The notes below the pieces were generated by a model. It was not told the DNA's origin, ran no database searches, and saw only the letters and a list, made by a program, of their open reading frames with translations. Of a DNA stretch of 64,000 nt, positions 5,376-38,700 are shown in pieces (position 1 is the first letter of the stretch; every line of letters starts with the position of its first letter). The translations under genes were made by a program, and so were the position numbers. The stretch is from Mytilus californianus (taxonomy: Eukaryota). The stretch lies in contig NW_026262701.1 in NCBI RefSeq assembly GCF_021869535.1, positions 118,110,001 to 118,174,000 of the forward strand. The letters run 5' to 3'.

Positions 5376-5694
5376 TGTCGATGAGTATATGAAGATGAAG
5401 ACCTGTTTAAGACAACTTAAATAGGTCAGACTCTCCTCAGAGCCAATAAGTATTCCTCGAGGGTACGGATTAGTTGCCATTTTATGGAAGAAAAACAAAT
5501 TCCCACATGGTAAAGCCAATAGACTTAGGATTAGGAAGAATACTGTGTGTAGGAATGAAGGACAGCTCTAACTCCAGCATACTCTTAAATCAGTATACCT
5601 TCCAGCAAAAGGAAGTAAAACCCGTCTCTCAAAATACCAAGAAGTAATTGACCAATGAATCAAAATACAATGAAACCCATCAAGTTATCAAAAG

Positions 5695-7072
5695 AAGGTG
5701 TTACAAACGAGGTAAAAAAACGGAAAACAAAACACAATCTATACCTGCGAGAGGAGTTACCAACGAGGCACAAACCGGCACAAAACACAATCTTTACCTG
5801 CGATAGGAGTAACTCTCGAGGCACTAACAGACACAAAACACAATCTATACTTGCGAGAGGAGTTAGCAACGAGGCACTAACAGACAAAAAACACAATCTA
5901 TACCTGCGAGAGGAGTCACCAACGAGGCACTAACAGACACAAAACACAACCTATACTTGTGATAGGAGTTACCAACGAGGCACTAAACGACTCAAAACAC
6001 AATCTATATCTGCGAGAGGAGTTACTAACGAGACACAAACAGACACAAAACACAATCTATACCTGCGAGAGGAGTCACCAACGGGGCACTAACAGACACA
6101 AAACACAATCTATACTTGTGAGAGGAGTTACCAACGAGGCACTAAAAGACACAAAACACAATCTATAGCTGCGACAGGAGTTACCAACGAGACTCAAACA
6201 GACACAAAACACAATCTAAACCTGCGAGAGGAGTTACCAACGAGGCACTAACAGACAATAAATACAATCTATACCTGCGAGAGGAGTTACCGACGAGACA
6301 CTAACAGATACAAAACACAATATATACTTGCTAGAGGAGTTACCAACAAGGCACTAATAGACACAAAACACAATCTATTCAAGCGAGAGGAGTTACCAAC
6401 GAGGCACAAACAGACACAAAACACAATCTAAACCTGCGAGAGGAGTTACCAACGAGGCACTAACAGATACAAAACACAATCTATACTTGTGAGAGGAGTT
6501 ACCAACGAGGCACTAACAGACACAAAACACAATCTAAACCTGCGAGAGGAGTTACCAACGAGGCACTAACAGATACAAAACACAATCTATACTTGTGAGA
6601 GGAGTTACCAACGAGGCACTAAAGACACAAAACACAATCTATACCTGCGAGAGGAGTCACCAACGAGGCACTAACAGACACAAAACACAATCTATACCTG
6701 CGAGAGGAGTTACCAACGAGGCACTAACAGACACAAAACACAATCTATACCTGCGAGAGGAGTTACCAACGAGGCACTAACAGGCATAAAACACAATCTA
6801 TACCTGCGAGAGCAGTTACTAACGAGACACAAACAGACACAAAACACAATCTATACCTGCGAGAGGAATCACCAACGAGGCACAAACAGACACAAAACAC
6901 AATCTAAACCTGCGAGAGGAGTTACCAACGAGGAACTAACAGACACAAAACACAATCTATTCCTGCGAGAGGAGTTACCAACAAGGTACAAACCGGCGTA
7001 AAACACAATCTATACCCGCGAGAGGAGTTATCAACGAGACACAAAACGGCACAAAACACAATCTTTACTTAC
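5695..7072. repeat. 53-bp minisatellite, about 26 copies
   Basis: Unit acagacacaaaacacaatctatacctgcgagaggagttaccaacgaggcacta; caacgag at 6661 and 6714 gives a period of 53. Edges are degenerate. Confidence 0.95.
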
Positions 7073-7184
7073 GACACTTTATAAACCAGTGCTTTTAAAG
7101 TTTGAACACAAGGCAAAAACAGTAGAAAAATCGATTATTTTTGGCATAACATACCGGATGAAGAATTTCATAGAAAACAAATTA

Positions 7185-7315
7185 TAGCTTGCTATATGGT
7201 ATGGGTTTTGGTCATTGTTGAAGGCCGTAAGCCTGACCTATAATTGCTAACTTTTTCGTCATAAGGTCTCTGATAGAGAGTTGTCTCATTGGCAGCCATA
7301 CAACATCTTCTTATT
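7185..7315 (+). mobile_element. High-copy dispersed repeat end (gttgaaggccgta...gagagttgtctcattggc...acatcttctt)
   Basis: The same motif recurs at about 26931-26985 (-), 31155-31220 (-), 32395-32495 (+), 46415-46465 (-) and 51470-51860 (-). Confidence 0.8.
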
Positions 7316-17812: not shown

Positions 17813-17853
17813 ACTACTATTATTCTTATAAGAATAGAGTGATTTTACTTCAG

Positions 17854-18593
17854 GGGCAAATGGACAGTCACTTGTTTCATTAAAAGAATTCCATGAACAG
17901 TTCGCCATTCCATTTAAGTATGGTGACAGAGAAAAACCTTGGCCACGTTCAACAATTCTACTTTATAAATACAGCTCAAAAGCAACATTAAAGTATGGGG
18001 ACATTCCTGAGAACACTTGGATAAGGATAGACAACGCAATAGGAAAACATGCCGAAATAATTATGATAAAAGATCTGAAGAAAATTCAGCACCACTTGGA
18101 AGAACAGGCAGATTATAATGTAGGAAGTTATAAAGGTATATTCAGCATAGAAGTCATTCTAAACTACTCACCAGATAGTGATTGTTCCAACAAATTGTGT
18201 ATTTGTAAGAAATATCTGGATGAAGAAATAGTCAAGCAACGGACAAACGGAAATGAAGGCCCTGCTGATAAGGTTAGGAAAATGTTCCTGACAACAGAAG
18301 TTGAAAAGGTAGAAAAAATTAATTTTAAAATCACCTTTTCAAACTTTTATAAACATATTGAGGAATTATATGGAACAGAAAACATGGAAGGATTAACAAA
18401 TCTTTTGAAAAGTGATATAAAACTTGATATATTGACAGATGAGAATTTGATATATTTTTTTAATGCTGCTGGGTTAGTAACTGAGAGACAAAGAAGAGAA
18501 AAGGATGACAAGAAAATTCTCCAATATCTTAAAGGATTAGCAGCTCTTGATCAGACCAATATAGACTACCTGAGAGAACATAACCTTGTGTAG
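17854..18593 (+). CDS. Terminal coding exon of an unidentified gene (about 246 codons; possible C-terminal DED-like death fold)
   Basis: ttttacttcag| acceptor, then an uninterrupted frame ANGQSLVSLKEFHEQFAIPFKYGDREKPWPRST...MIKDLKK...YLREHNLV*. A 740-nt stop-free stretch in DNA this AT-rich is unlikely by chance. The DED assignment is by-eye pattern only. Confidence 0.75.
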
Positions 18594-23308: not shown

Positions 23309-24002
23309 TTTACAAGAGTCCCAATTGATGTACATTTAAGCAAATATAGTTCACTATAGTTTTCAATATAATTGCCGAAAAATATCGTTAATTCCTTTTT
23401 TTTAATAGGTCTTGTTTTTCTTATATTTTTTTGCTGTTTAATTTTTTTCTCTCAATCTTATATAAATTTAAAATAAATAGCAAAATGCATAGATAATTTA
23501 TTAAAGATAGTTATAAAAGTTTGAGTAAATAAGTAAACATTATGGGGAAATAACTCTATCAAAAGTCAATTGAAAATGTTGGTTATGGTTCATATCAAAG
23601 GGCAATTACTACTATAAGTTAACTGACATTTATGACATTGTGCTGCTATTAGTTTTTCTTTATCTACAATATATTTTTGACCAAAAATTCAAAAATTGGT
23701 AAAAATTGTCGTTTAGGGGCAATAATTCCTATAAGGGGTCAACTAAAAATTTTGACTTCGAGACAAATTTGAAGATCTTGCCATATTGAACATTTTTCTA
23801 TTTAAACTTCTCTTTGAAATTGTCTATATCATTTTTCAAGACAATAAGCAAAAACACAAAAAATATTGATAAAAATCGTCATATCAGAACAATAATTCAT
23901 TTATACAGGAGTTGAGAAACAATTTCAGCCATGTTGACTTAATTGTAGATCTTGTCCCGCTGATCATTTTCCCTATTGAAAGTTTATTTCCATTGTCTTG
24001 CT

Positions 24003-25086
24003 ATGGGAATAGTACAAAGCAGTTTTCCAATGGAGAGAGAATAGCGACAGACATACTTGGATAATTACCAGAAACAAGGAATGGAAACAAATATATACTT
24101 GTTGTGTCTGACTTTTTCTCAAAATGGACAGTGAGTTTTCCGATGCCAAATATGGAGGCTGAAACGGTAGTAAAACTGATAGTAAAAGAAGTAATAACAA
24201 GGTTTGGAATGCCAGCATACATTCATTCCGATCAGGGACGACAGTACGAAAGCAACTTGTTCTATGAAATGTGCAGAGTTTCAAACATAAAGAAAACAAG
24301 AACAACGCCATATCACCCCCAATCCGACGGGATGGTGGAGAAATTCAATGGAACACTTGCGAAAATGCTGAGTGCATATGTGAACGACAATCATGATGAC
24401 TGGGACGAATATCTACCTTATGTCATGATGGCATATCGCAGTGCCGAACATGAGACAACAGGTTATACGCCGAACTACTTGATGTTTGGTAGAGAAGTAT
24501 CAACCCCACTTGATATTATGTACGAGATGCCACAGGCACAACAAGAAGTACCAACCAATAAATGGGCTTGGAAAATGAAAGAAAGGATGGAAAGTGCACA
24601 TTCAATAGTACGAAAGAATACCGAGACAGCAATGCGTCGACAAAAGAGATATCACGACTTAAAGCTGTCGTGGCAATAGTTTGAAAAGGATGACGAAGTG
24701 TATGTTTATTTTCCTGTGAGAAAAAGTGGACGATCACCAAAGTTTACTTCATTTTGGAGAGGTCCATAAAAGATAATAGATCGGTGTACAGAAGTTACAT
24801 ACAGAGTCAACTGTGCTTATAGAGGAAAAGAGCAGATTATTCATGTAGATACAATCCGCAAGAAGAATATACAAGGCTCCGAGACGAGGCGATAGAAAGT
24901 GAGAACGGTCAGGAACGAGAACCTGTTAACGATGTATGTAGTACGGAAGGTTGGAGGAATATGCAAAATGAAGAACAGATTGTGACAAGTGACTCAGGAA
25001 CAAAGTGTTTGGAAAAAAGTAGTCATGAGCCTGAAAAGAGAAGGCGTTGTAAACCTGTATGGATGAAGGATTACTGTGTTGAATAG
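24003..25086 (+). mobile_element. Ty3/Gypsy pol 3' remnant: integrase core, GPY/F module and C-terminal tail (disabled)
   Basis: PMER/IATDILG*LPETRNGNKYILVVSDFFSKW...IHSDQGRQYES...TTPYHPQSDGMVEKFNGTL...WRGP*KII...IHVD...RRRCKPVWMKDY. DDE residues are visible. There is a 2-nt GA slippage near 24035 and stops at 24062, 24677 and about 24766. The 5' part is truncated. Confidence 0.95.
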
Positions 25087-25227
25087 GCGTTCAGGTGTAT
25101 CTTACGTGTATATAAAAGTTTGTTTTTCATGATGTACATAAAATTGTATATATAGTTGGTGTTGTTTTTATAGTTTATTCTGAAGATTAATATTGTGTTC
25201 TTATTGCTGTATTTTCAGAAGGACATC

Positions 25228-26082
25228 ATGGCAAATACCAAGAAAACACCAAGGAAGGTTATTTTTACACAAGTCTTAGAGGAAAAAATTCAATGTCCAT
25301 TCTGTCCTCTTGAATTTGGAAATAAGGAAGACAGAAACCGCCATTTAATAGAGTGCACAGATTCAAGGCTCTTCTGTGAGTTATGTTCCTATAACACAAA
25401 TTAGAGAACCAATCTCACCAGGCACTTTAAGAAGGTCCATTGTAGTACGGATGATAAAGATGAATCTGAGGACACTGAGGCAGAAGTGGAGAGTGAGATT
25501 GATGATAAGACAAATAACAAGCAAAAACCAATACGAAAACCAATCTCTGGAGATAAAAGTATAGATGTATCTTCAGATGAACCGTTAGCTCAAAAAGTTG
25601 ACACAAACAAGACAAACGTAACCACAGAACCGGAAGAAGAAGTTTTAGAAGATACAGTAAAGTTGGACAATTCGAAGAGTCTGTTTACAGATTATGACAA
25701 TATCTCTAGTGATGATGATGATGATGATCTAGGATTTATTGATAAATCAAATAAACTTAGTGTTAGTCAGCCAAAGAAGCCTGTGCAAGAAATAGAAGAG
25801 AGTGTGAATATGTGAAGAATTTTCAGGAAGAAAACAGATCCCATACCTATAATTGCACCAAAGAAAAGGAAAACAACTACAGTACAGGATCTTAAAAAGA
25901 AACTTGTAAAGACAATGCCTGGTATAACCAGTATTAATACAGCGACTCTGGGATCGGGTAAAATGCCTCACAGATGTCAATGTAATTTGGATAATATGAA
26001 GACTGTATATGTGAAGACAATTACAAAGTATATGAAAGATGGCAAGCAAGTGAAGATTGTTGAAAAGAAGGTTCCTAAGTGA
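25228..26082 (+). pseudogene. Gypsy-associated third ORF (285 codons, two in-frame stops): H3-tail-like N-terminus, C2HC and C2H2 fingers, acidic tract, NLS
   Basis: tattttcag|aaggacatcATG. MANTKKTPRK; CPFC-x12-H-x3-C; CELCSYNTN*RTNLTRHFKKVH; D/E-rich middle; PKKRK. A single frame runs 25228-26082 with TAG at 25402 and TGA at 25813. Confidence 0.8.
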
Positions 26083-26240
26083 ATAACGAACAAGTTGTGA
26101 TTTCATGGACTAGTTAAATTTGTCTTTGTTTTAGTTATGTGATTGTGTTGCTACTTTGTGTTTATTTTTATTCAGTCAAAAGAGATAGATGACTGAAAAT
26201 AAATCATCATTCTGCCATGTTTTTTGTGTTTTTATCATTA

Positions 26241-26375
26241 TGTGTCCTTCGGATGGGGACGTTAAATCCGAGGTCCCATGTACAGGAAAATACCACGACC
26301 TGTGCATGTAAAAGACCCCTCCTGCAAAGTTCGTTAAGAGTAGGCCTTGTTGCCGCTGTAGAGGCTAAATTATTT
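26241..26375 (+). other. Deu/Nin-domain-like structured sequence
   Basis: gtccttcggatggggacgttaaatccgaggtcc..taaaagaccc..ttcgttaagagtagg..ggctaaatt matches the Deu/Nin SINE core motifs as I recall them. No tRNA or 5S head is seen upstream. Confidence 0.6.
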
Positions 26376-26460
26376 CAAACCTATTTTTGTGCAATATATT
26401 TCCCAGTGGTAATCACTGTATATATGTGCTAATGTGTTCATACGTTTTGTGTGATATTTA

Positions 26461-26590
26461 TCTGATGCATGTTGCATAGTAATCCGTTGGTGACATTGTG
26501 TAATAAAGTGTCTGATGCATGTTGCATAGTGATATATTGGTGACATTGTGAATAATCAGGCCTAATACATGTTGCATAGTGATTGCATAG
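26461..26590. repeat. 50-bp tandem repeat, about 2.6 copies
   Basis: tctgatgcatgttgcatagt at 26461 and 26511; a diverged copy at 26561. Confidence 0.8.
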
Positions 26591-27568
26591 TGATATTGTT
26601 TATATATATTCTGTTATAAGACATTGTGTTTATACATTGTGAATGAGGAACTTCACCTTGTAATTTAATTTATGTGCATTGTGTAGCGTATATATTTGAC
26701 ATTGTGAATTCATTTAAGGGTGTGTTAATTGTTTTAAATAGGACAACTTGTTGTGGTGCAAATTTGAGTTGAACACTTGAAATCCTGATTTATTCAGATA
26801 CGGATCCATTGATCGCCCGTTACACATTACACATATTCTTTTCCATGAAAAAAAACCCTTTTTAATCTTTAATCACTCATCTTCACTGAATAATTTTATC
26901 ATCATGTAAGAAATAAAGGAAATCAGAAACATAGATATAAGGAGATGTTGTATAAGTGCCAATGAGACAACTCTCCATCCAATGTATTTTTTACTTTCCA
27001 AACATGTCGTTATAGAACTTAAACTTCTGATTCAATTTTTATACATCTTTTCAAATGACTTCTTGAAGTTTGAATAGCAAACTAGATATTTTGATATTTA
27101 TTAACAGGATTTTGCCTATCATTTTTTAGTTGTAAGGTTTTGTAAATAGTTTTGTAAATGCGAGGACAAGTCATCGTCAAATAAAGGCGTGTCATGACTC
27201 TCTGTACAACTAAAATACATTTCAAACATTTGTTGAAAACAATAAAATAATCATAGAAGTATGAGAGACACAAACATCTGTTAAAAGAAGTGAAAAGTAG
27301 AATCCTGACTTTGCATAAAAAAACTTGTGTCCAACCAAGTTTTGGTCACTAAAATAAACTAACTGGTTTCCAGAAATTCTCTTTTATTTGCCCCCTTTGA
27401 TTAAACAATCAGATTTTATTTTGGGAACAACTTTTGGATATATAGTGGGGAAAGGGTAGAAATGGGATTCACTGGAAAATATTTTAGTCGCCAGCTGGGA
27501 CAGCAGGATGATATAAGAGGCTGTCTGAGTGACAGCAAACCAGATTTTTTAACATTTGTGTCCTGGGA

Positions 27569-35750: not shown

Positions 35751-38700
35751 CTGAAATAATTATTACCAAGCATTAACCAAAATAAAACTGTACTTAACCT
35801 ATCATTAAGTGGTAAATAAATAATAAATAAACAGAGAATATATCTAGAATCTCAATATTTTCAATTAAACACAATGTTCTGACTATTCTGAAACGAATAA
35901 GATTGATACACTGTATTTAAATGTCCCATTTATTTTTTACATTGTATTATTCTCAGGAGCAGACAGAGCAACAACAGTTACAAATATATCATCATCATCC
36001 TAGTTTATAGAGCCTAGTAGTCATTCCGTGTTGCCACTTAAATGAAATGTGGTAAATTTTAGAATTAAGGGACTGTTGTACAAATATTTGTATAACACCA
36101 CATTTTCATGTGAAGTTTTTCAATGAGTTGTGTTCAAATTGTCACACAATTTAATGGCATTAGGAAAGTTACAAAAGATCTCAAGTTGTCATTATGGTTA
36201 AAATACCGTAGGACAAAAATTGTCAAAGTCCTAAAATATAGTCAAATCAGAGAAACTGTATAAAGAGGTCAACTACACACGAGGAAAACAAATTTCAGTA
36301 AGTATGAAGGATTCAGACATAATTGTCTGGGAGGTATTAATGTTAACAAGGTGTTCTTTTATTACAGAACATAAATGGTTATAGCCTCACATTTCATGAA
36401 AACTTATCAATATGGCTGTACAGTATGTTCAACTTCCTTAAGGATGTTCGCTACTCTGTTTCAAAATAACAAGCTTTTTGAAAGACTGTCATAAATAGAT
36501 AGTATATAAATAAAGGAGCTAAAAAAGCAGAAAAAAATGAAGGGTCCGGTGCTTGTTTTCGAGATATAAGCCATTGAAAATTTGGCGGGAAATGATTCTC
36601 TCTAGATTTTTCATACATTTAACATTGGCACCTTTTTTCTTTCAAAAACATTGAAAAAATAACAAGGATTTTATAAGATTTTCAAATATGGCTTTTTAAA
36701 CTATATGTAATAAAATTATGAAAAGAAAAGGAGGGGTTAGTGGACAAAATTTCTTAAAGGAAAAACATTGATAAAACCAGAGGATTCTGAATATCTGACA
36801 AAAAATCAAAAACAAGAGGAGCGAACATCCTTAAATGATAAATAAGTGTGGAAGCTTTCAGACATAGAAGGAATCACAAGTTAGCTACAATATGCCTTTA
36901 AAAGTCACATATCACCATGGCCAGCAACAACTGTCAAATGAAAATGGTTGTATACATTTGTAATGACAAACAATCCTACAAGGTAATTTTGTTGGCAAAT
37001 GATGTCCAACTCTAAAGGTGTAGTAATCACAAGGCGTCAGAATGTAGAATATGGTCAAGCACATATGATGACAAACAATATTTCCAAGTGAGAAAGCTTC
37101 TGGCAAAGAAGTCCAAGATCAGTCGTTTGTTAGGGAGGGACAGTCAAAGACTATTACTCTGTCATTTGCAGCAGAGGACAAAATTAATAAAGTAATTTCA
37201 CTTGTATTTTGGTCATTTTTGGTTCTATCTTTTTATGTTCCATTATTCATAGAAATCTTATAAGTGTTCGATTACAACAGCAACTATGTAATGACAAAAG
37301 CTTATGCATCTAGAACTTTGTAGTACCTTGGCATGTGTAGCATCACTTTTTAAGAAAGTGTCAATACTGCTTCTCAACTTTGCAATTCTTAAATCCCATA
37401 TATCTTTTACAAGGGTTCTAATTTCATCAGCATGTGGAATATCGTCTGTGGCACTGAAAGTATAAAATAATGTTCTTATTCAATGATGATATAATATCCT
37501 CAATTTAAAAAAAAGACAACTGAATGCTGATCATTATCTAACAAATTCTAAATGATAAGGTCTCACTTAATAATTTCAACTAAGTTGAGTTTGTCAATAA
37601 AAAACTGTTTCTTTAATAAAACAAAAATTTTATCAAGGATCTCAAATCTGTCAAAATAGATAAGTTATAACAGTTATCTTATGTTCTTCAATAGAACAAC
37701 ACACACTTGAAAATGATTGACAAAATGTACATAGGTACAATGATTCTGAGTTTATCACTGTAAAGTCAACATAGTGTATCAAAGAACACATATTGTTTAA
37801 TACAAATGTAAACTTGCTTGATGATATGTATAAATTAATACAACATTAACAGCTGTATTATTTTTTTGAAGATGAGTATACAATAACTTACAGTTTCAGT
37901 AACAGCTGTGTTATTATTTTGCTGATGAGTATACAGTATCAAACTTACAATTTAAGTAACAGTTGTGTTATTTCTTTGATGAGTATACTGTGACATGTTT
38001 ACCATTTAAGTAACAGTTGTGTTATTTCTTTGTTGAGTGTACTGTAACTTACAATTTAAGTAACAGTTGTGTTATTTCTTTGTTGAGTATACAGTAACTT
38101 ACCATTTAAGTAATAGCTGTGTTATTTCTTTGTTGAGTATACAGTAACTTACCATTTAAGTAACAGCTGTGTTATTTCTTTGTTAATTATACAGTAACTT
38201 ACCATTTCAGTAACAGCTGTGTTATTTCTTTGTTGAGTATACAGTAACTTACCATTTAAGTAACAGCTGTGTTATTTCTTTGTTAATTATACAGTAACTT
38301 GCCATTTCAGTAACAGCTGTGTTATTTCTTTGTTGATTATACAGTAACTTACCATTTAAGTAACAACTGTGTTATTTCCATGAAATGAGGACTAGGCATC
38401 TCTGTAAAGAACTTGCTATCAGTTTCTTCTTGTTTCTTGTCTTGAAGCCTCTCTAAGAAATAAAACATCTACAGATTAATAAAACTAGGTCACAACTATT
38501 AAAAAATCCACCAACCTTAATATTTTGCCTCATAATATATATATATATATATATAAACAAGAATCTGTATCTATAGGACACCATGGAGTTCACATCATCA
38601 TATTTCTCTGTTCAGTAAGGGAGCGTCTTTTTACCACAGAATACCACAGAACACCAAAAATATACCACAGAACTTCGAAATATAAATACTTCAGACATTA

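Follow-up and report, generated by a model that had tools for sequence, protein, structure and literature searches.

A conserved accessory gene under selection, ORF2, is a real component of Gypsy retroelements in the mussel Mytilus californianus, and its design, a start resembling the tail of histone H3 followed by zinc fingers, is common to a second class of retroelement, the Penelope-like elements; its function we infer. With a probability of roughly one in two, the product is a nuclear protein with zinc fingers that imitates the H3K4 region at its N-terminus and in this way tethers an enzyme or reader of host chromatin to the DNA of the element, keeping the element expressed.

The window (the whole stretch of 64,000 nt analysed here) holds a dead copy of such an element, as the sequence-only reading had recognised. 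The element is truncated and deleted, and its ORF2 is broken. Comparison with complete copies delimits, at 24003–26832 (+), a member of family A, a Gypsy LTR retrotransposon of 9.0 kb; this copy is truncated at its 5′ end, has an internal deletion and shows 93.6% identity to the complete copies over 24003–26415 and 98.6% over 26417–26832 (+), the latter being the 3′ part of the 3′ LTR. The 5′ LTR, gag, PR, RT, RNase H and splice donor are absent, and the PPT has been lost by deletion along with ~730 nt at the 5′ end of the 3′ LTR. What is left of pol is an integrase remnant with stops and a frameshift (24003–25086 (+), 97% to the integrase of complete copies; pol frame end 25084–25086), followed by the pyrimidine tract and CAG of the ORF2 splice acceptor (25198–25218, +), the equivalent site of a complete copy being joined in one contig to a donor upstream of gag. 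Distances agree with the acceptor 9 nt before the ATG, about 140 nt past the pol stop, that had been claimed: the acceptor ends at 25218 and the ATG stands at 25228, 141 nt beyond the pol stop.

ORF2 itself (25228–26082, +), recognised from sequence and from the open 294-aa ORF of other copies, runs from the ATG at 25228 to a TGA at 26080–26082 as a single frame of 284 codons plus stop, interrupted, as described before, by just two point stops, at codon 59 (25402–25404) and codon 196 (25813–25815). Residues 2–10 (25231–25257, +), ANTKKTPRK, form the peptide in register with H3, identical to H3 1–9 at 6/9 positions; the same match had been proposed, and holds when H3 is read from this genome's own H3 gene, in addition to which the peptide is conserved across families. 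The two fingers, acidic tract and PKKRK listed from sequence are each present. A C2HC finger (residues 23–43; 25294–25356, +) matches Pfam zf-C2H2 below the curated cut-off and is folded in the AlphaFold model of an intact relative, and a C2H2 finger (residues 50–71; 25375–25440, +), holding the first stop, is seen in the sequence, by Pfam and in the model. An acidic tract (25450–25782, +; 30% D+E over residues 75–185), predicted to be disordered, includes a SLF..D.ISS motif conserved in the family alignment, which also reveals a conserved basic RKxTxP motif and then PKKRK (residue 211; 25825–25872, +), which we take to be a nuclear localisation signal (NLS). A conserved C-terminal beta-hairpin (25999–26079, +) is predicted with pLDDT about 85 at residues 271–290 in the model of the intact relative. 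Elsewhere in the window, an open frame of 251 aa at 17838–18593 (+) matches AID/APOBEC-like deaminase families (Pfam NAD1, E 6.5e-8), and there are tandem arrays at 5617–7187 (53-nt period) and 37949–38428 (50-nt period).

The window copy retains only IN among the pol domains, and both the Gypsy identity of the element and the evidence for splicing are drawn from complete copies elsewhere in the genome. A DNA search found about ten places related to the window element, and complete 9.0-kb elements were present in 3/10 regions examined, with 1145–1147-nt LTRs that were 99.7–100% identical, TG..CA LTR ends and, in 3/3 checked, 4-bp target-site duplications. Two of the three carry a single open 1673-aa gag-pol, and family A is assigned to Gypsy because Pfam places gag-PR-RT-RH-IN in that order on this ORF of a complete copy; a PBS and PPT accompany the domain order, LTR ends and target-site duplication expected of Ty3/Gypsy. 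ORF2 is open (294 aa) in all three and starts MPNTKKTARK or MPNTKKTPRK. Family A is thus a young Gypsy family. An identity as Ginger or Troyka was rejected, as complete copies carry RT, TG..CA LTRs and 4-bp target-site duplications. The linkage of ORF2 to Gypsy pol that had been claimed is borne out by the complete copies and by loci chosen on integrase (below), which carry ORF2 behind pol. Alongside one decayed family A copy lies an intron-free ORF (L043:3160–4044, −) that presumably resembles casein kinase 1. Another element family (L279, L286, L294–L296) bears an apparent PHD finger directly 3′ of an integrase-like C-terminus.

Four sequencing runs were mapped to a complete copy, one of them (X22) recorded as RNA, with the RNA status of X1 guessed; among the listed public runs containing element sequence, none is recorded as RNA. 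One X1 contig (depth 3.6, its shorter side 30 letters long, RNA status guessed) skips 5181 nt with GT..AG ends, joining an AG/GTGAGT donor, which precedes the start of gag by ~25 nt, to the acceptor that lies 9 nt ahead of ORF2, so that use of the predicted acceptor is supported by one contig in 1/4 runs, of guessed RNA status. X2, from the same study as X1, gave an ORF2 contig only; X3 covered the whole element, with the junction absent; X22 had 9 reads on the element and 0 on the junction. Expression looks low in the mapped runs. Family B has a canonical donor at the equivalent place upstream of gag, no donor was found directly before gag in families C and D, and in nine families ORF2 occupies the same post-pol position behind an acceptor.

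To keep the motif out of the selection, distribution was examined in 70 loci chosen by integrase similarity alone. Fifty of these formed one clade (SH-aLRT 99, quick tree), and a profile without the N-terminus found ORF2 in 33/50, with x-x-T-K-x-T kept in place in 28/33; the remaining five comprised family H (Ile at position 3) and decayed copies. Among the 20 loci outside the clade there was no real motif match (0/20; one match was broken by stops). Ten of these 20 (L228, L231, L232, L234, L237, L243–L247) possess post-pol zinc-finger ORFs without an H3-like start, several behind an AG acceptor, and accessory finger genes look general in the Gypsy elements of this genome, where such genes are common and are annotated as uncharacterised host genes. 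With the same profile ORF2 was not found in 17/50 in-clade loci, including a whole 11-locus subclade, and is therefore dispensable in cis. In that subclade (L160, L164, L165, L168, L170, L211, L212, L220, L223, L224 and L227) no open pol frame exceeds 348 aa and several loci are neighbouring copies, hence weak evidence.

Selection was gauged over the first 75 codons, whole-ORF dN/dS values of broken copies being set aside on account of stops and frameshifts. Four diverged Gypsy pairs gave 0.18, 0.09, 0.09 and 0.06 and a Penelope-like pair 0.07, and several young pairs with few changes gave 0.39–1.06; the range of 0.06–0.18 in diverged pairs indicates that the N-terminal region is under purifying selection. 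It is hardly credible, then, that ORF2 is a captured host gene fragment or a decaying passenger without selected function. Its loss from 17/50 in-clade loci and the broken window copy are what a passenger would show, but the diverged-pair values lie far below 1, ORF2 is open in young complete copies of several families, and it keeps its post-acceptor position in nine families and has homologues in four bivalve genera.

The likeness to H3 was assessed in 35 non-redundant families (27 Gypsy and 8 Penelope rows at <60% identity, drawn from 33 + 9), whose database rows were found with queries containing the N-terminus and were partly picked by motif; in 4 database rows the start was placed at the Met of the motif, and two rows seem to be one residue out of register. 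The start, M-[APV]-x-T-K-x-T-x-R-K, stands in register with H3 residues 1–9. T3 is kept by 32 families, K4 by 33, T6 by 31, R8 by 26 and K9 by 22; the first position holds A, P or V in 33/35 (A itself in 15/35), H3 A7 is matched in 2/35 and R2 and Q5 in 0/35, and conservation falls away after position 9. Of the A-x-T-K-x-T-x-R-K start whose conservation had been put forward for testing, T3, K4, T6 and R8 are widely kept, but the conserved form is [APV]-x-T-K-x-T; likewise the K4 equivalent stands and the K9 equivalent is weaker. On the family profile H3 1–9 scores 11.9 bits, a score reached by 18/2,000,000 random 9-mers and by 32/22,680 sequences made by permuting the H3 letters themselves; among 117 other zinc-finger N-termini the highest score is −8.9. 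The histone comparison was with the H3 tail, with the H2A, H2B, H4 and H1 tails and bivalve CENP-A outside the scoring. All four codons are used at T3 and at T6 (16 genome copies, 14 families), a synonymous variety which implies that the constraint acts on the protein. A genome pattern search for the DNA of the start returned 62 matches, against 1 for a reversed control, and 8/20 of the start-pattern loci examined had no finger ORF behind them. A common repeat matching the pattern without a finger ORF (L129, L135, L140, L142, L146, L307) means that pattern counts overstate gene numbers.

Could the start be some other short motif, its H3 likeness incidental? T-P-R-K is a CDK consensus, and a CDK site, an SPKK-like minor-groove T-P-R-K, an NLS or an N-terminal degron or methylation signal might each account for it, ORF2 then being an ordinary acidic transactivator of the LTR. 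In 22/35 families P occupies position 7, and the lack of any match at R2 or Q5 suits this reading, as do, for a transactivator, the aromatic motifs of the acidic tract and the separate NLS. We nevertheless regard it as unlikely: the most invariant residues are T3, K4 and T6 rather than P7, and the motif is tied to the very N-terminus, a placement not required of CDK sites, SPKK motifs or NLSs, and stays fixed there while the spacer to the first finger Cys ranges from 13 to 28 residues. Moreover Lys and Arg do not stand in for each other at positions 4 and 8 (K4 is never replaced by R, and R8 becomes K in only 3/35 families), so that side-chain recognition fits better than plain charge. Mimicry of the H3K4 region is what this conservation favours, and the pattern, with T3, K4 and T6 kept and R2 avoided, should point to the host factor by which these elements are restrained or permitted in bivalves. 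The K9/G9a part of the H3-mimic reading is weak. In the available part of PMC10611923 the H3K9-mimic motif of G9a/EHMT2 is [GCSAKLN]-R-K-[TGQSVMALNKER], which fits 5/35 families at positions 7–10 (counted by eye), because position 7 is mostly Pro; PRKV of the window copy does not fit.

The scope first proposed for the gene, a Gypsy family, holds for Gypsy but is too narrow, as the H3-like start also heads ORFs of Penelope-like elements. Among 20 start-pattern loci examined, one was Gypsy, 8 were those without a finger ORF and 11 had a different finger ORF, with two C2H2 fingers and KWxPPxEA, whose readable neighbours are an upstream gene for RT plus GIY-YIG and inverted or tandem repeats. Pfam finds RVT_1 and GIY-YIG at locus L138, and inverted and tandem repeats are present. 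Judged by a single ORF with RT and C-terminal GIY-YIG and by tandem or inverted pseudo-LTRs, the second carrier of the H3-like start is Penelope-like elements. The H3-start finger ORF lies directly 3′ of GIY-YIG at L128, L134, L138, L144, L309, L310 and L312; one Penelope-like family, in which its start overlaps the stop, forms a 3927-nt tandem array on C110. A query from which the N-terminus had been left out was used to collect 30 Penelope loci, of which 22 had the start in frame (11 of them near-identical copies), 4 had it behind a frameshift and in 4 it was decayed or deviant. All 12 Penelope-type proteins have a DLYLS-like motif, and 7/12 (P0208, P0212, P0214, P0216, P0219, P0223, P0225) have IDLT followed by acidic or Ser residues, which we take to be like a SUMO-interacting motif.

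Gypsy and Penelope proteins can be aligned only over the first ~75 residues. Compared without the N-terminus, Gypsy fingers score 54.7 against Penelope fingers and 90.0 and 92.9 against generic host fingers, although the deeper host profile inflates the latter scores. The fingers being no closer to each other than to those of the host, the comparison suggests that Gypsy and Penelope-like elements may have acquired the H3-like start independently. It is possible, with the odds leaning somewhat against it, that R2-less H3(1–9) mimics evolved independently in the two bivalve element classes and are aimed at the same host chromatin factor, which would constitute an animal anti-silencing system. 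The retention of a nine-residue peptide in two unrelated classes of retroelement renders the question experimentally tractable.

A conserved non-coding element of the 3′ untranslated region (26236–26365, +), with matches in 31/50 in-clade and 1/20 out-clade loci, raises the alternative that ORF2 acts post-transcriptionally, in the export of unspliced genomic RNA or, with integrase, in the choice of integration site. The retrotransposon must retain both unspliced and spliced RNA, the 3′ element belongs to the same clade as ORF2, and RNA export has precedents in Rev and in CERV, the latter described for Cer1 in the available part of PMC10309623. This role seems improbable, since the 3′ element persists in some copies that lack ORF2, and since Penelope-like elements share the N-terminus yet have no integrase and a C-terminal half different from that of Gypsy ORF2. 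An Rfam search of 24000–27000 of the window gave 0 matches. The 26236–26365 element has many short matches across the genome and is reminiscent of a conserved SINE core domain.

As to the protein, AlphaFold predicts for an intact relative that both fingers are folded and that a long middle part is disordered, besides a single helix and the C-terminal hairpin (mean pLDDT 55); a fold search with this model of mean pLDDT 55 gave generic C2H2 matches only, none at E≤0.001, and in both searches of the ESM Atlas all the clusters retrieved were either unnamed or generic zinc-finger ones. Pfam matches were to zinc fingers only. Maximum 19-residue hydropathy in ORF2 proteins is 0.44–0.54, and the highest value, 0.54, accords with the claimed lack of a membrane segment; ORF2 is not an env gene, and not errantivirus env because it has neither signal peptide nor transmembrane anchor. 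Mean identity in the finger region is only 29–38% across families. Database searches found homologues in four bivalve genera (Mytilus, Pinctada, Saccostrea, Crassostrea) and, among the species-named matches, which were a minority, none outside bivalves; one oyster gene model spans the integrase tail into ORF2. In P0040, probably an internal deletion derivative, gag-protease is fused in frame to ORF2. A TQT-like motif, presumably resembling LC8/dynein-light-chain binding sites, occurs in 14/24 Gypsy ORF2 proteins and an acidic-Trp-xx-QDP motif in 9/24, as raw counts without background.

The mechanism we favour, mimicry of the H3K4 region, would begin with removal of the initiator Met, which the A, P or V at residue 1 implies, leaving a free amine in place of that of H3 A1. 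A pocket of the host that binds H3 and can do without R2 would then recognise the individual side chains of T3, K4, T6 and R8, while the fingers would bind the LTR of the element and the acidic motifs might act as an activation or histone-handling surface: a SNAG-like architecture (H3-like N-terminus plus C2H2 fingers) in the service of a transposon. Many readers of H3, and SNAG as well, rely on R2; candidate partners for an R2-independent H3K4-region pocket are PHD, ADD and CW readers and LSD1-type enzymes. Modelling of residues 2–75 in complex with the PHD2 finger of this genome's CHD4/Mi-2-like protein and zinc scored 0.00 (without alignment, by a tool unproven on peptides), which counts neither for nor against binding, and the ATRX ADD domain in this genome is split over exons. 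The mimic might instead act untethered, as a decoy or inhibitor by which a reader or enzyme of silencing is titrated throughout the genome, its fingers serving general chromatin or protein contact rather than LTR targeting. Two fingers, one of them C2HC, would offer little DNA specificity; derivatives lacking ORF2 have spread, as a trans-acting product would permit; and viral NS1 works in this manner according to the available part of PMC12937675. Low apparent expression, however, suits local tethering better than titration, and the fingers are strongly constrained and resemble DNA-binding C2H2 pairs, making a free decoy distinctly unlikely.

Several known systems share part of this design. 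Errantivirus env is expressed from a spliced subgenomic message. It occupies a post-pol position (PMC13524379, available part), as does ORF2, but ORF2 lacks a signal peptide and membrane segment and has nuclear-type features. Non-env ORF3s of bdelloid LTR elements, shared with Penelope-like Athena elements, are, in the available part of PMC5408684, post-pol accessory ORFs expressed from spliced RNA and of types common to LTR and Penelope-like elements, but encode GDSL esterases, DEDDy nucleases and membrane or coiled-coil proteins. In the available text, the words ‘zinc’ and ‘histone’ have 0 occurrences in PMC5408684, and ‘histone’ has 0 in PMC8557442 and PMC13524379. Judged from listings of the full-text literature, there is no description of an H3-like N-terminus in a retroelement accessory ORF, and the gene appears undescribed there, as had been supposed; Repbase/Dfam entries and supplements may mention the ORF. 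Transposon counter-silencing is established in plants, hardly any chromatin-level example from animals being known to us, and we know of no H3-like start or C2H2 pair in VANC, the plant protein closest in proposed role. In the available parts of PMC5735166 and PMC10398659, VANC of Arabidopsis VANDAL transposons is an anti-silencing accessory protein that, like ORF2, counters the silencing of its own transposon family (shown for VANC, proposed for ORF2), but it belongs to plant DNA transposons.

Viral histone mimics such as NS1 and ORF8 resemble ORF2 as parasite proteins with an H3-tail-like motif, but theirs are four-residue motifs away from the N-terminus and strain-limited, whereas ORF2 keeps a nine-residue register at the true N-terminus in dozens of families and two retroelement classes. 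ORF8 is the histone mimic of SARS-CoV-2. For NS1 of influenza A H3N2, the H3-tail-like motif is proposed, in the available part of PMC12937675, to engage the H3K4 machinery. ORF2 does not follow the SNAG-family consensus, having R2 in 0/35 families and K at position 4. That consensus, P-R-S-F-L-V-[RK]-K, is found at the N-terminus of the zinc-finger factors Snail, Gfi1 and INSM1, which reportedly hook LSD1 (Lin et al. 2010). In both, a peptide resembling H3 forms the very N-terminus, in many cases beginning with Pro once Met is removed, and C2H2 fingers follow, but SNAG has R2 and no K4, whereas ORF2 has K4 and never R2, and SNAG factors are host repressors, whereas ORF2 is borne by transposons. 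ORF2 is not a member of the SNAG family, yet its construction is that of a SNAG factor in transposon form.
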